NCBI RefSeq assembly: GCF_009834535.1
Contig: NC_045696.1
Location: forward strand, 61,692,001-61,756,000
Source of the DNA: Camelus ferus
Lineage: Eukaryota
Direction: 5' to 3'
DNA length: 64,000 nucleotides
Shown: positions 15,116 to 41,217 of the stretch, one piece after another
How positions within the stretch are numbered: position 1 is the first letter of the stretch
Layout of the letters: every line of letters begins with the position of its first letter
Program-made: the position numbers and the translations under genes
The notes under the pieces: generated by a model
The model's input: only the letters and a program-made list of their open reading frames with translations
Database searches by the model: none
What the model was told of the DNA's origin: nothing

Positions 15116-15477
15116 TCAGAATTCGTCAGCTGACTCTGTGTCCCAGCCACAGGACTGCAGTTGTTCATCCTGTGGGAAATCAACTTCAATGTCATAAACA
15201 AAATTTGGATCATCCTTCTTCTTCTGATTTTTCTCAAAAAGTTCATCCATGATGCTCTTCCTTTTGGCAAGTTCCTTGTCATCTAGTTTGTTCAGGTCTT
15301 CCTCAGGATCAATGGTTGTTTCCCGCTGAATTTGTTCCATTGTTTCTGCCAAACTCTGCCCCAACAAGTAACCTCGTAAAAAACTGAATAACTTCTCTAG
15401 CTGCCTCAGGGATACTTGTTCCAGGTAGCCCTTGTGTCGCGGATTATTCTTTAGTTGTTCAGCAGCTCTGCCACAAT
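15116..15477 (-). CDS. CEP19: CEP19 second (terminal) coding exon
   Basis: Acceptor TTTATTCCTCCCTCCTAG|AT gives [22 protein letters not shown]...[16 protein letters not shown]. 362 nt + 130 nt = 492 nt = 163 aa + stop, the length I recall for CEP19. Confidence 0.96.
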
Positions 15478-16089
15478 CTAGGAGGGAGGAATAAAACTAT
15501 CATACCACACACACCACCACAAACTACTGAGGCACCACAATTACTGAAAGCATTGCCAGCCATTAAAGTCAAGTAGCTATTTGGCTTTTGGGGAATGAAT
15601 TATTTTGCAGAACTATTTCTTTATCTCAAGCTTTGAGTGCAGTGAGGGAAGGAGGGATATATTTTTTATTTCCTTAACTTAAAATTACTTTGAGGAGATG
15701 TTAAATGCTTTTAACTGGAGAAAAGGTATGAGAAGAAATAGTATTACAGCTTTAGATATTAGTATTGGTACTAAGAAAATATCAGGACTATAAATAAAAA
15801 ACACATTTGGAGGGAGAGAAGAGAGTTAATATTATTTGAAAAATGTTATCTCATTTAATTCACACTGCAGTTCTGAAAGGTTGGGTTTATCAATTTACTT
15901 TTACAGATTAGGAAACTCATGCTCACTGAGTAATTTAGCCAAGATCATACACCTACCCTGACTGTCATGACTTGAACCTAGGCCTATTTAACTATGAAGG
16001 CCACGTCACTCCATTACCTGAGACTCTAATCGTTCTTATTAAGTGGCTCAGAGAATATTTAAGGTAGGAGGCAAGATAAAACAAGGTAC

Positions 16090-16219
16090 CTGAAAACTTT
16101 GAAAAGTTTCGGACTGGCATGATGCGCTGGCGATTTTTCCCCTTCATTTCATTCTCATAGATTAAGATAATAGCCGGAGGCTGGAACCTAACTCCACATT
16201 TCTTGGCAGTGCACATCAT
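16090..16219 (-). CDS. CEP19: CEP19 (centrosomal protein 19 kDa), first coding exon
   Basis: ATG at 16219 gives [43 protein letters not shown], recognisable as the CEP19 N-terminus. Ends at donor TCAG|GTACC (130 nt, phase 1). The exon's acceptor is ...CCCCTTTAGCAG at about 16287-16292. Confidence 0.96.
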
Positions 16220-18284
16220 TCTCACATACACTTCAGGGTAAATCAGAGGAAGTCTGATGAAAATGTGTTAGTCACACAATGACTTCCTGCTAAAGGGGAA
16301 AAAAAATTAAGTGTTGGATAAACCACATTCCCTCCTACTCTTCCTCCCCAGCAGATCTGGCTCTAGTCCAGTCTAGAGATGCATGTGCTGTCTGTCAAGC
16401 TCTGTATTTCAAGGGCTACCTTGAAAGTTCAATTTGGCCCTGGGTTATCCTTAGTCTGTAGAATCTCTGGTTCACTGAGGAGTGTAGGTTTGTTCACAAG
16501 TGAGCCTAGAAATGCAGTTCAGTTTGGATCTCTTAGTGTATTGTACTCTTAACTAAAGATTGTATATGAACCCCTGCGTCAGCCTAAGAATCAACTTACA
16601 GAATCTTTTTTATTCACCAATTAAATAAGTGTGTATAAGCTCCCTCTATGTCAAAGTACTAAGAGTTTTTTAACCTTATACATTATGTCCTGAGAGGTTC
16701 ACCAGACATCTCCTTTGTACTTTCCCAATCATTTTACTCATTGAAATTTTTTGTAATTACTTATTTAATTAAAAAACTTACCTTCCCTTCTATTCTTTAT
16801 GCTCCACAAGGTCAGGGAATATATTCATTGTTCACCACAATATGCCCAGCACAGTAACTGCACTGTAGCAGGCATTCCATTGTTTAAGTCAATGTATTAA
16901 TATAAGACACAGTCCCTGTACATCCTCTAAGTATTGACAGTCTAGAATTCTGATCAAAAAGACAGACTCAACACAGAATCAGCCACTATATATACAAGGC
17001 AATAAAGCTTACATGGCTTTTATTCCAATTTATGTCTCATTACATGATGTTTTTCAGTTACAAGAAACAGCCATTTTGCAGGTTAATACTTTTTTACTCC
17101 CCCTTCGTTTCCCTGCTCTCAGTGCCAAAATACATTTAATTATAGGAACTGCTTTAGATGTGACTTATATTCCCGGGAAGATTTGCAAATGTCAAAGCAC
17201 CTAGAGGTAAAGCAGCATAGGGATGATATCTTCATAAACACAGTTCTGTTACAGAATCACTATAAGAACATAGTTATTTAACACATGTTTATTGTAGAAA
17301 ACTGGGGTGGGGTGGGGGAGGGGGAGAAGAAACATAAAATTATCACCCTTGATTCCTTCCAGTCTTTTCTCTAGTATGTTTCATCTTTTTAAACTATAGT
17401 ATGTTTCTTGTATTATACATACTATTTCCTGCCTTTTAAATTTAACAACCTATGTAATTTTGTCATTAAATGTCTTTCTAAAAATGCAAATTTTTATGAC
17501 TGCAAATGTTTTGTCCTGTGGATATACCACAATCTGTATTATCTACCCCTTACTGTTGAATGTGAGAATTTTTACTCTTAGGAAATGAATCATTTATTAA
17601 AAAATGCTTTTTCAAATTATTGTGCTCTGCCTCTGATCTGATGCAATGACCCCACCCCAGCCCTTCTTTGTTCTTTTCCCTCTTTTTTTTTTTTTAAACA
17701 AATATCCTTGCAGTTCACCTCATTAAAATTTGTTAACACAGTTCTTAACTGCATGCTTATACTGCTATTTTCAGTTTCAGGTAGTATCTTCTGACATTTT
17801 TCCTCTTTAGGACATCCGTCCTAGAGCCCTCTGTTCTGCTCTAATTTGCATTTAATACTCTCTAAGTTTGCTTACAGATTCAATTCATAAAGACTGAGGA
17901 CACATTTACCTAGCTCTTCTTCCTACACATTTAAATTTTTCTCCGCAGGGATCAGTGACCAGCGAAATCTTGCCAAGCATCCCCACAGCACCTAAAAGTG
18001 TACGGATTTGATCATCAGGTAGACGATCCTTTCCCTACTTAAGTCAGGACACGGCTGACTAGATGGGGCTGTGGTTTCTTACCCATAGAGAAGTACAGAA
18101 AGAGCATCTTCTGCAGGCCAATGTCTAAAGCTTCCGTGAGGCGGCTGTTTCCAGCAGTGCACAGAGGAACACAACTTGACTTTGAGGCCGGGCAGAGCCT
18201 GGCGCTGCATAAAGAGGCGACAGCTACAGGCCCGCAGACGTGACTGAATGAATTCCCCGGTAGGAGGCCCGCATTGGCAAATAC

Positions 18285-18600
18285 CTGGAAGTGGAGGTGG
18301 ACACTGGGAGTTCAGCCAGCCGTATCCCAGGACAGCTTACGGAGCTCAGGGTCAGGCTGGGGGCCCAGGGACCCGTCCCCAGGGACCCGTCCCCAGAGTA
18401 ACAGCCCCTGCATACGCCACGCGCTTGCGCACTCCTCGCCCCGCCCCCGACCGGGCCGGTGAGGGGCTAGGCGCTGCGGCGAAGGGGTGGGACTGTTTCC
18501 CGCGACGCCGGAACCTTTGGGGGCCGGGACTGTGGGGAGCCGGGAACGGCAGGACCGCAGGCATGCGCACAGCCATTCTTCCGTCCCGGTCGCTAACTCC
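18285..18600 (-). other. CEP19: Probable non-coding exon 1 of CEP19 (boundaries approximate)
   Basis: Lies in the CpG island, divergent from PIGX. Candidate donor CTTCCAG|GTATTT at 18285/18284; other donor-like sites near 18082 and 18341. The TSS cannot be determined from sequence. Confidence 0.45.
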
Positions 18601-18698
18601 GTGACAGTGCTCTCTAAGAGCGGTGTGAGGCGTGTGCAGGTTCCTCCGACCGCATTTTGTCCCCGCGCGCTCTTCTCGGGCGCGCGTTCTCTGGCGTC

Positions 18699-18795
18699 CT
18701 GGCTGCCCGGGCCGTGGCTTGGCTGCTCCTCTGGGGGGCAGCTGGGCTTGCCTGCTTACCAGTTACAGCCTTTGACACCTCCGGGACCCACGCCG
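18699..18795 (+). CDS. PIGX: PIGX exon 1 coding part (CUG start, signal-peptide-like N-terminus)
   Basis: GGCGTC-CTG-G gives (M)AARAVAWLLLWGAAGLACLPVTAFDTSGTHA-G, then donor CCG|GTAAAG (phase 1), in frame with exon 2. Resembles the human PIGX N-terminus (MAARVAAVRAAAWLLLGAA...). Confidence 0.82.
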
Positions 18796-21236
18796 GTAAA
18801 GGGAGGGGCGGGGCTTCGGCGGTGGGGGCGGGGTTTAGAGTCGAGGGGCTGGGGAGCAGGTCCCGGGTCCTCCCCGTCCTGCGTTTTGCGAAGGTACTTC
18901 ACAGTACCTTGGCGCGCGACTCTAAACCTGTAAGGTGAGCTAGAGGAGGTTAAACACAAAGGCCACAAGCCTCCGGCCCCCATTCCCCCAGCCTTCGCAG
19001 CTTTGTGGCCGCTCCTGGTTATCTGGGGAGTCGGGCTTTGTCGTTCTGAGGCGAGACTGGCCGCACTATTACTAAAATATTGCAAAGGAAATACAGCAGT
19101 GAAGCGTTTTGGGATGCTCTTAAGATGCATGAAACTTCGGACTACCAAGGAGCTAACAAAGCCTAAGCACCCTGTGAGAACCCTAATCTAGAATACAGCG
19201 ACTTTGTGGGAGTGGGAAGAGGAAGACGACTGGTTTTATTTACAAACATTTTTGATAATAGACTAGATTCGGCTGTGGTTTCTTTATGACTGTGGGCTGG
19301 GCAAGTGAGTTGATTCATTTCTTTGGGCCAGAGTCCGTGGGCTGGAGTTCTGTGCTAGATGCTGTGGATCCAACCCTCGTTGAGCTTGCAGTGTAGTAGG
19401 ACAGAGGGATACGTCAGTAGTAATTAGAACAAAGTGATAATGTTTGAGAGGGAAAGGAAGGCCAGTACAAACCAGGTGAGTTTCTCCATCTGTAAAACGA
19501 GGATATTAGATTACTATCAGTGCAGTTCTGCTTTTGTGTGTTTACATATTAGCTTCTCAAATTTATTTGAGGAAAGGATTATTAGGCCAAGAAGAATTTT
19601 AAAATAGACTAATTGTTATCTGAAGAGTTCTCCAGCCCTGGCATTTTACGATTAAAAAGGGGCCAATTTCCAGAGCCATTTCAGGCCACAGTAACCAAGT
19701 AAAGTAATATTTAAGAGGAAAAATCTCGGTGAATTCAGATACAACAAATTCGTTTTAAAAATGGTACTTTTGCTTTAAAAACCATAATAATCTAGTATTT
19801 GCTATACTGTTTGTAAATTAGCCTTTCTACCATCTCAAGATGAATGGGATTTACTGTTCTCTGGTGTATATCTCAATAGAATTTAAGCCTATTAATCTGG
19901 CCTTTTTTCTAATTTAATTTATTGGTAGACATAAACCCTTACTCCCTACCTCCATTAGAATTAAACATTGAAGAAACATCTGGATTTATACAAGACATAT
20001 TCTATAAGTTATTTGGGAAAAGATGACATAGGCTTTTCCAAAGCAATTAAGGATTTCTTTAAATAGCTGGGAGAGTGGAAATACCTTAGGCTTTAAAAGT
20101 TAGGCAAATCTTGCTTCTAATAACTTACTTAGTTGTATGACCTAGACAGTAACTGTTTATAAGTCAGAGTTTCCTTCTGTGTACAAATGGCATTAATTGT
20201 GTTTGTCTATTTTGATGGTTGTGAAAGTTAAAATATATGTGAAAGCCCCAAGTAGAGGATCTGTCATATAGATATTATTAACAAATGTTATTTTTTCCAT
20301 ACTTTTTTCCTTCCTTCCCTTGTATTTTTCAGATGTTTCCATCAACACTCATATTTTTTTTTAATCTCCTCCGGATTACGTCTAATGGACTTAACAACAT
20401 AAGGCAGTATATGGTTTTCTGTGTGTTTGTTTTAATATTCTTCCCACACATTTTCAGTCTTTGAAATGAAGTAAAATTCCATTGCAAGGTGCCTGGACAG
20501 AGTTGGTGATCATTAGGAGCTGAATTTTTAACTTTAGAAGGCAAACATCAAGTAATAGTTTTAATGTCTGAATTCTGCATGAAGTCAGTATAGTCAGATT
20601 TCTGGTTATTCTAAGTTTATAAAGGAACCCTTTGAACGTTTGAAAAGCCTCCAGTTCTTGTTTTTTCTTTAAACTCTCCCAGCGTCTCCACAAGGTATAA
20701 ATGTACCATCTTTTCAGTTTTCTATGTGTGGATGGTAGAATATAGAAGTTGCCAGTTTGTATCTGATACTCAGTTTCAGTGAGCTAGGATTAAAACAGAT
20801 TTCCTGGCTCTTTGGCCATTCTGGTTTTCTTTGTGTCCTAGGATCACCTGAATAAAGTAATATAAATAACCATTTATATAGAGTGCTTGCTCTGTGGTAT
20901 GCCCTCTTCTAAGTGCTTCTACATATATTAAATTCTCATGACAACTAGCAGAGAGATAAACTATCTTGCCCAAAGTCACACAGCTGTTAAGTGACAGACT
21001 GGGATTTGAAACTAGCCGATCTAACTCCAAAGTCAGTGTTTTTAACCCTAATGCTCTTCTAGGAGTAGATTTATGTGTAGCTCAAATTGCTTAACTTTTA
21101 AAAGTTTTTGTTTTGTTTTTGGGTTGGTTAGATTTTCCAGGTAAATAAAGCCTTTTCAAACAATTATTTTATAATTATTTAAATATTCTTTCATTGAATA
21201 CTTATTTTATTTAAAAAAATCTTTTGCTTGTTATAG

Positions 21237-21300
21237 GCATAAGGGCCACTTGTTCTGAAATTATTTTGAGGCAAGAAGTTTTGAAAGATGGTTTCCACAG
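21237..21300 (+). CDS. PIGX: PIGX exon 2
   Basis: TTATAG|GC ATA AGG GCC ACT TGT...CAC AG|GTAAGT = G-IRATCSEIILRQEVLKDGFH-R. 64 nt. Confidence 0.95.
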
Positions 21301-28415: not shown

Positions 28416-28557
28416 AGAACTGTTAATAAAAGTGAAATTTGGAGAGAGCATTGAGGACTTACAGACTTGCCGACTCTTACTTAGACAGTACATCCCGACA
28501 GGACTTTTTGTGGATCCTTATGAGTTGGCTTCATTACAAGAGAGAAACATAACAGAG
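28416..28557 (+). CDS. PIGX: PIGX exon 3
   Basis: TTTTGCAG|A GAA CTG...ACA GAG|GTAC = ELLIKVKFGESIEDLQTCRLLLRQYIPTGLFVDPYELASLQERNITE. 142 nt; phases match the neighbouring exons. Confidence 0.96.
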
Positions 28558-36473: not shown

Positions 36474-36687
36474 GCAATGATGGTTTCAGAAAATTTTAAT
36501 ATAGAGGCACCCAACTATTTGTCCAAAGAATCTGAAGTTCTCATTTATGTGAGACAAGATTCACAGTGCATTGATTGTTTCCAAGCTTTTTTGCCTGTGC
36601 ACTATCGCTATCATCGGCCACATAGTAAAGATGGAGAAACCTTTATTGTGGTCAATAACCCTGAGTTATTGATGTATTGTGACCAAG
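36474..36687 (+). CDS. PIGX: PIGX exon 4
   Basis: TTTTGACAG|GCA ATG ATG GTT...GAC CAA G|GTAAG = AMMVSENFNIEAPNYLSKESEVLIY...LPVHYRYHRP...LLMYCDQ. Contains the PIG-X/PBN1-family LPVHxRYH motif. 214 nt. Confidence 0.96.
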
Positions 36688-38290
36688 GTAAGGGTTGCAA
36701 GTCTTTTTGGAGGGTTGAAAATAAAAATAAAGGTATAGTGGTAAGTCTGAAAGTCAAGGACAGTACTAACAAAATCGTATTTCTTTTTTTTTCTTTTTAA
36801 CTCTGTAACATAAAGCACAGATATAGAAAAACTTTACAAATACATAGGCTAGTGAATTATTAGAAGGCAAATACTCTTGTAGCTACCACCCAGGTCAAGA
36901 AACAGGACTTTGCCAGCCACCGTAGCAGCAGCCCTGTGTGTCCTGTCCAAATCATAGCCCCCTCCCTTCCTCTAAGAGTAACCCACTCTGCTGACTTTTA
37001 ATCACATCCTTATGTTTCTTTATACTTTTGTCACCAAAGTGAGCATTCTTAGACACTATAGCTTAGTCTTGCCCATTAAAAAAATTATTTCCATTAAGTG
37101 TCTTAATTTACAGGTTTCCCCTCTATCTCTTTTAAAAAAATTATCTGTTGAAGAACTTGGGTCATTTGACCTGCAGTTTGTCATTGTTGGGGTTTGGGTA
37201 ATTACACTCATGCAGTTCATCTGAGTTCTTTATTACCTGGAAATTGGTAACTGGTTCCAGAGGTGTGATCAGATTCAGGTTTGATTCTTTTGGCAAGACT
37301 ATAGGTGGTGCTGTCTTCTTTTATGAGTGGGTGTGTAATGTCTGGTGCGTTTCTTTTTTCAGCCATTGATCCTCATTGCCCCTTTGCTGCTTTCTGTTTT
37401 TTCATATTGATATTGTAGCATTTTAACTATTAGTGTTTTATCTCTACTTGCATGTATTTTGGGGTTTAAGGGGATACTTTATCACCTAGTTTTGTTGTAA
37501 AAGTTGTCTAATGAGTTTTTGGTTTTGTGTGTAATTGTTCTTTCTGTTTTATGTGTGGATTTAACTATATTAAAAAACTATGCTTTCACCATTTTCAGTC
37601 TTCCTAGAATCAAGACTTTAAGAAGCCCCCTTCAGATTCAGATCTTTTTGTCTCTAAATTTGGGGAAATTAAAATGTTTACAAAAGTCAATAGCACTGTT
37701 ACTAAAGACTGGCAGATAGGAAGTTTTTAACTATACATTTGCTACTGTCATATATTTTATGATGAGAAAATAAAAAAGTATTCAACCATGTGGGGTTTGT
37801 TTATCTAACCTAGTTTTCTGTTTCTTTTAGTGGTAGCTTTTACTTACCCTATATAAAGTTTGGAAAAGTGCCCCATCCTGAGAGAGCAAATGGGGTTCTG
37901 GAATTGTTTGTTTTTTTGGTCTGAGAGTTCTTTACTTGGGTGTGTTTTCTCTATGGAAACTTACTGAGTTATAGGCTTAGGATCTGTTCAGTTTTCTGAG
38001 TATATATTATAGTTTTAAAAAGTTTAAATTTAAAAAAAAAAAGGTCCCTGGAGTAATGGGATTTGTTAAGAAGTCATGCTCAACTTCTGTACAGTTTTTA
38101 TAACTTTATAATTTCTTAAGCATCCACTTGGAACAAGCTGTTAAAATAAAACAGCATGTGATAGATGGGTCCAAATCACGTACATTGTGTATTAAAATGT
38201 TTTGAATATTCATATCCCAACATGAGAGATGGCCTAGACTCTAGTCCAGATATAGCTTTTCTGATATGATGTTCTACCACTTTTTCTCAG

Positions 38291-38391
38291 AGTTTCCAAT
38301 TTTGAAATGCTGGGCTCAGTCAGAAGTGACAGCTGCTTGTGCTTTGAACAGTAAGGATATCTGCCAGTGGAACAATATGAAATATAAATCA
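38291..38391 (+). CDS. PIGX: PIGX exon 5
   Basis: TTTTTCTCAG|AG TTT CCA...AAA TCA|GTAAGT = E-FPILKCWAQSEVTAACALNSKDICQWNNMKYKS. 101 nt. Confidence 0.95.
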
Positions 38392-41073: not shown

Positions 41074-41217
41074 GTTTATAAGAATGTGACTCTACAGGCT
41101 CCAGTGGGACTGACCATACATACCTCTTTAGTATGTTCTGTGACTCTGCTCATTACCATCTTGTGTTCTACTCTGATCCTTGTGGCTGTTTTCAAATATG
41201 GCCATTTTTCCCTCTAA
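41074..41217 (+). CDS. PIGX: PIGX exon 6 (C-terminal transmembrane helix, stop)
   Basis: CTCTCCATAG|GTT TAT AAG...TCC CTC TAA = VYKNVTLQAPVGLTIHTSLVCSVTLLITILCSTLILVAVFKYGHFSL*. Spliced CDS totals 762 nt = 253 aa. Product is the stabilising subunit of GPI mannosyltransferase I. Confidence 0.96.
   Translation, partial: VYKNVTLQAPVGLTIHTSLVCSVTLLITILCSTLILVAVFKYGHFSL

Follow-up and report, generated by a model that had tools for sequence, protein, structure and literature searches.

Translation of camel PIGX most likely, and in our judgment very probably, starts at a CUG codon at position 18699 of the window (the whole 64,000-nt stretch of Camelus ferus DNA analyzed here), so that the protein would have 253 residues and carry a predicted signal peptide at its N-terminus. 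PIGX takes part in making the lipid anchors that hold proteins on the cell surface, and PIG-M is GPI mannosyltransferase I. PIG-X binds and stabilizes PIG-M in mammals, according to the portion of a 2024 review that deals with this protein (PMC10895387). The proposal of the initial annotation, that full-length, ER-targeted PIG-X needs non-AUG initiation at this CTG, is supported by that portion of the review, by the N-termini of human, mouse, and rat PIGX, by leucine at the start column in 77 of 77 placeable read-through eutherian-set proteins, and by a spliced, AUG-free contig. The features of the locus are as follows.

18083..18491, minus strand: CEP19 first-exon region, overlapping the ATG at 18248 of extended camel models (contigs of runs X4, X6, X7, and X9)
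18509..18698, plus strand: leader, with unbroken contig cover running into exon 1 and exon 2 (run X6, record 5, unstranded)
18563..18604, plus strand: out-of-frame upstream ATG and its 13-residue ORF, with 94 nt between its end and the CTG (sequence; within the X6 contig)
18615..18617, plus strand: in-frame TAA closing the PIGX frame on the 5' side (sequence)
18699..18701, plus strand: CTG, likely PIGX start codon (Met1 column of human, mouse, and rat references; Leu in 77/77 placeable read-through models)
18699..18795, plus strand: coding part of PIGX exon 1, with residues ~1-20 as predicted signal peptide (hydropathy, AlphaFold helix, human annotation)
18714..18716, plus strand: GTG, the sixth codon of the PIGX frame, a possible minor second start with G at both -3 and +4 (sequence)
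18716..18748, plus strand: predicted 15-bp hairpin, 14 nt past the CUG, about -24 kcal/mol (folding, best of 33 overlapping windows)
21237..21300, plus strand: PIGX exon 2 (GT-AG; joint with exon 1 shown by a loose end of the run X6 contig, then mapped)
28416..28557, plus strand: PIGX exon 3, PIG-X domain, profile positions 11-50 (GT-AG; PF08320)
36474..36687, plus strand: PIGX exon 4, with the earliest in-frame ATGs at 36477-36482 (GT-AG; PF08320)
38291..38391, plus strand: PIGX exon 5 (GT-AG)
41074..41217, plus strand: PIGX exon 6, C-terminal transmembrane segment and stop (GT-AG; hydropathy, AlphaFold model)

From the CTG the PIGX frame runs for 253 codons without a stop, spliced over six GT-AG exons, and its only in-frame methionines are codons 103, 104, 168, and 202. 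The sequence confirms two points of the initial annotation: the near-cognate CTG (18699-18701) has a strong Kozak context, its surroundings reading GGCGTC-CTG-G and so supplying G at both -3 and +4, and exons 1-3 hold no in-frame ATG, the earliest in the spliced frame being codons 103-104 in exon 4 (36477-36482). The coding part of exon 1 stops at 18795 and is followed by GTAAAG; 5' of the CTG the frame stays open for 27 codons, none of them ATG, until it is closed by the TAA at 18615. Neither this frame nor the unbroken spliced contig, which comes from one of four sequencing runs, holds an in-frame AUG that would give the full PIGX protein. An exon-4 query matched one locus in the whole genome, and no second copy or retrocopy was found with it; this single locus adjoins CEP19, as orthology predicts, and CEP19 is likewise the neighbor of human PIGX, both genes appearing in the human 3q29 table. 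The top database match is a PIGX model from Camelus bactrianus, identical to the window frame over its final 253 residues. Codon 127 (exon 4) encodes Val in the window, as it does in the Bactrian and wild-camel models, and Ala in both dromedary models.

The CTG at 18699 is not singled out by the sequence alone, because a Met-free stretch of 102 codons is not rare in itself (chance estimated at ~0.1 for a typical Met frequency of 2%) and a second near-cognate codon in strong context, the GTG, lies at codon 6; cross-species data do single it out. Met1 of human (NP_060331.3/Q8TBF5), mouse (NP_001104495.1), and rat (Q60GF7) PIGX falls at the camel CTG column, and the human, mouse, and rat proteins resemble the camel one in the start column, signal-peptide core, domain, and C-terminal anchor, with 207, 203, and 201 identical residues, respectively; the database Met1 in other species may have been projected from human. 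Over-extended automatic gene models, which read past the true start, reveal the residue encoded there, and read-through proteins in the human and mouse clusters carry Leu at the CTG column. With the start residue left free, Leu is found in 77 and an internal Met in none of 138 eutherian-set cluster representatives, among which contig proteins were taken in by likeness; all 77 placeable read-through proteins thus have Leu. The rest comprise 13 whose first residue is a Met at this column or close to it, 2 misplaced by the pattern (also Met-first), 28 unplaced, and 18 without the exon-2 motif. On the conservation of the CTG across species, which the initial annotation had singled out for checking, the proteins show Leu in 77/77 placed eutherian-set models, and Leu means a Leu codon rather than CTG as such. 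The residue before the start, also left free, is Val in 65 of 67 models and Ala in the other 2 (36 of 120 were dropped for want of exon 1 or 2), so G at -3 is kept throughout. As a positive control, six turtle-type read-through models have an internal Met at the point where five others begin. Among distant full-length relatives, 84 of 102 have a Met start 30-70 residues before the anchor residue, compared with 26 of 121 in the eutherian set, and 78 of those distant relatives with a Met start shortly before the domain have a hydrophobic stretch at the front.

The sequence following the start has varied among mammals. The camel N-terminus (window 18699-18722) is five residues shorter than that of human just past the start, as in mouse and rat; the distance from start to Trp is 7 codons in 11 of 67 models, which are those of camel and muroid rodents, and 12 in 49 of 67. 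Longer forms carry a repeated RAVA-like unit, and the shortening therefore likely arose by independent slippage deletions. In exon 2, camel reads IRATCSE and human NP_060331.3 reads IRAMCSE, as the initial annotation had stated, but the change that it assigned to this species is not special to it: Thr is present in 87 of 102 mammals and Met in 8, among which every named species is an Old World monkey or an ape. Besides Thr for this exon-2 Met, camel differs from human in having Met for Val at codon 103 and in a cassette exon without an AG acceptor. The last lies at window 37251-37304, which is homologous to a 54-nt cassette exon from the longer human PIGX isoform; its donor GT is kept, but it looks unusable here because the acceptor reads AA instead of AG.

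The transcript evidence comes from assembled contigs of 4 of 24 sequencing runs (X4, X6, X7, and X9), unstranded and RNA by guess, compared over 17900-19300. The contig of run X6 is unbroken over 18509-18796, passes across the in-frame TAA, and continues with the letters of exon 2, marking the exon 1-2 joint; this transcript type holds the TAA and no in-frame AUG. An alternative first exon with an in-frame AUG, which the initial annotation had named as an RNA result that would refute it, is not what this one contig in four runs contains; the contig is unstranded and does not fix the 5' end. In exon 2 (window 21250, codon 37) the loose end of the X6 contig reads ACA where the window reads ACT, both Thr; the ACA allele, seen in one contig, would make an out-of-frame ATG. 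CEP19 lies head-to-head with PIGX on the minus strand, with coding exons at 16088-16204 and 15140-15493. In X4, X6, and X7 its contigs are spliced between 18083 and the acceptor of CEP19 exon 2 near 16289, the intron ends being GT-AG on the minus strand, and the X9 contig has a CT..AC joint, which also denotes the minus strand. The CEP19 first exon at 18083-18491 (minus strand) is non-coding, with an 80-nt minus-strand intron within it in X9 (18205-18284). The CEP19 and PIGX contigs come within ~20 nt of each other (18491 and 18509), a layout like that of a bidirectional promoter, and CpG o/e is 0.8-0.9 at 18401-18800, marking a CpG island.

These contigs bear directly on the start chosen by the NCBI 350- and 384-residue camel models, in which translation begins at the ATG at 18248, a short intron ends at 18618, and the CTG encodes an internal Leu. 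Three of five named camel models take this start, the intron that the 350-aa model requires (18459-18618) has canonical GT-AG ends, and a similar MNSP beginning occurs in one primate-like protein. Against it, the donor differs between models, the 384-aa form implying a 58-nt GC-AG intron, and the X6 contig, which continues into PIGX exon 2, has no break through 18509-18618. The contig cover over the ATG at 18248 is explained by CEP19, because the contigs at 18083-18491 splice on the minus strand, in three of the four runs to CEP19 exon 2. No joint into 18619 is listed in the four runs and an exon-1 contig is missing in three of them, neither of which proves absence. The 5' extensions in other mammalian models range from 6 to 235 residues with no common start, and the camel extension, modeled by AlphaFold as low-confidence coil, would leave the signal peptide ~100 residues inside the protein. 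A start at 18248 is accordingly very improbable.

Initiation within the 253-codon frame but downstream of the CUG has to be weighed as well. The in-frame GUG at codon 6 (18714) would give 248 residues with the hydrophobic core of the signal peptide kept; it has a strong context, with G at -3 and +4, and is picked by gene calls on assembled contigs (P0125 and P0126), which look as if GTG had simply been called as Met and give no evidence of initiation. The CUG precedes it and stands at the start column of the human, mouse, and rat references, the G at -3 of the CUG is fixed by the preceding residue in 67 of 67 models, and the GUG is located at the foot of the predicted hairpin. CUG is also generally a stronger near-cognate start codon than GUG, so the GUG is improbable as the main start; a minor share of starts there is possible. 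A still fainter prospect, the least probable of the alternatives, is that the functional product begins at Met103/104 in exon 4 and has 151 residues. These are the earliest in-frame AUGs, Met104 is in strong context, and one dromedary model and several rodent models begin here; yet exons 2-3 place two out-of-frame AUGs ahead of them, and the product would be without the signal peptide, the glycosylation sequon at N98, the PIG-X profile up to ~55, and the invariant residues of exons 2-3. The in-frame ATT and TTG upstream of the CTG (18654 and 18657) were rejected as starts, their column having Leu in just 22 of 65 models.

The protein that starts at the CUG has the make-up of the PIG-X/PBN1 family. 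The PF08320 profile matches exon 4 (E 2.9e-15) and exon 3 (E 2.4e-6), both over the cut-off; exon 6 scores 20.6 bits, under the cut-off, and exons 1 and 5 gave no match to this profile. Hydropathy reaches 1.95 over 11 residues at the N-terminus and 2.64 over 19 residues from residue 225, the C-terminal membrane segment, and the structural model combines strands with a C-terminal helix, in keeping with a lumenal beta-rich domain and a single C-terminal transmembrane segment. The sequon at N98 corresponds to human N103 by the five-residue offset. The AlphaFold model is that of the 350-aa camel form (50 sequences, mean pLDDT 63.9); in it the 97-residue extension is coil with pLDDT 36-55, and a helix begins at the CUG column. 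By hydropathy, this model, and the human record, the hydrophobic N-terminal helix aligns with the human residues annotated as signal peptide, which are residues 1-21 in the section of the review that covers PIGX (PMC10895387). Four strands and one helix of the domain precede Met103 in the model, and a Met103 product would thus lack part of the domain as well as the targeting signal. A sequence search matched no solved structure for PIG-X, and the ESM Atlas returned PIG-X clusters and one weak match only.

With initiation at the CUG, ribosomes would scan from the CpG-island promoter common to CEP19 and PIGX and be held at 18699 by G-3 and G+4, the CUG being read as initiator, and the hairpin 14 nt downstream would probably help this start in camels. 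The signal peptide would direct PIG-X to the ER; once there, its lumenal domain together with the C-terminal anchor would stabilize PIG-M. Ribosomes that leak past the CUG would meet the in-frame GUG at codon 6 and then the out-of-frame AUG at 21288 in exon 2, which is in strong context and opens a 7-residue ORF that would catch leaky scanners, so that few would reach Met103.

A hairpin ~14 nt downstream aids weak start codons (the effect of Kozak, 1990), as described in the portion of PMC5666671 that treats it, and the same portion describes a strong hairpin after the weak AUU start of PTEN-beta, an arrangement that camel PIGX resembles. The PTEN hairpin is conserved and experimentally tested, whereas that of camel PIGX is only predicted and its spacing fits no lineages but those with short N-termini (11 of 67 models). 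None of 100 shuffles was as stable as 18716-18748, which is the best of 33 overlapping windows, picked after the scan; exon 1 as a whole folds no better than shuffles (z -0.43), as does the leader. In 49 of 67 mammals the residues of the hairpin stretch lie 15 nt (five codons) further from the start, the camel-like spacing occurring in 11 of 67 models. Because the hairpin was picked after a scan, the exon folds like shuffles, and the spacing differs in those 49 mammals, a predicted general role in the PIGX start is counted against. The 13-residue ORF at 18563 is a candidate uORF if the mRNA begins upstream of its ATG. This ATG sits within GCATGCGCA (window 18558-18570), which we take to be NRF1-site-like, and the region may be promoter sequence in most transcripts.

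Annotation of PIGX has handled this start in several ways. The five named camel models have 350, 384, 384, 280 (partial), and 151 aa, and none starts at the CUG. The three long ones take the ATG at 18248 as their start and enter the PIGX frame by a splice joint at 18619, just 3' of the in-frame TAA; the 151-aa model, from dromedary, starts at Met103. The expectation that AUG-only annotation would truncate the protein by ~100 aa describes this last model, one of five, but not the three that are extended to 18248 or the one that is partial. An over-long N-terminal part is present in 78 of 121 full-length eutherian-set database proteins, and annotation extends PIGX more often than it truncates it; variant calls, constructs, and signal-peptide predictions built on over-long models will be wrong. 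By eye, several whale, bat, ruminant, and carnivore models seem to enter the frame from unrelated exons at an ER-type junction ~27 codons upstream, corresponding to window 18615-18620, which suggests a common gene-finder escape around the in-frame stop.

CTG initiation was reportedly demonstrated for rat PIG-X by Ashida et al. in 2005. Section 4 of the 2024 review states that the PIGX CTG start is well conserved in mammals, giving Ensembl rather than an experiment as its source (PMC10895387). This section, together with the human, mouse, and rat reference records, bears out the statement in the initial annotation that CUG initiation of mammalian PIG-X had already been reported; the start is known, and the camel window is an added species, not an added mechanism. 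PIGX is not named in the available main text of four papers on non-AUG initiation (PMC9789052, PMC9082881, PMC5666671, and PMC3105428), and the CUG start, though known, is therefore little cited in that literature. Nor was PIGX found in the 11 supplementary files of PMC9789052 that were searched; in PMC6001798 it appears in a gene list only. Like main ORFs with exclusive non-AUG initiation, among which it would be a candidate, camel PIGX has no usable AUG and a near-cognate codon in strong context. Unlike them, it encodes an ER membrane protein that would owe its signal peptide to the non-AUG start.

The distribution of the start residue suggests that the CUG would date to at least the marsupial-placental ancestor, a dating that was not found in the literature searched, whose coverage left out most subscription journals. 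In three of five marsupials (koala, Tasmanian devil, and brushtail possum) the CUG column holds Leu preceded by Gly-Ala, and the opossum model has a different N-terminus. Such a dating makes testable why an essential gene of the GPI pathway kept a weak start codon. A speculative and rather doubtful extension is that the CUG is an old, selected throttle rather than a tolerated accident, and that by the time of this ancestor, or perhaps earlier, it had replaced an AUG like the one apparently used in reptiles, amphibians, coelacanth, and invertebrates. Together with the hairpin and the short ORF upstream, the CUG would make the supply of PIG-X, and through it the stability of PIG-M and the output of GPI anchors, depend on stress signaling and on how stringently start codons are chosen. 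If this were true, PIGX would belong, so far unnoticed, to the few genes with exclusively non-AUG initiation. The platypus model has a marsupial-like GA-LAP motif, a hint of an origin earlier than the marsupial-placental ancestor, and the echidna has an internal Met before its hydrophobic stretch. A bilby model (P0220) has Arg at the CUG column and Met 13 codons upstream; either this lineage may have gone back to starting at AUG, or the model may be wrong.
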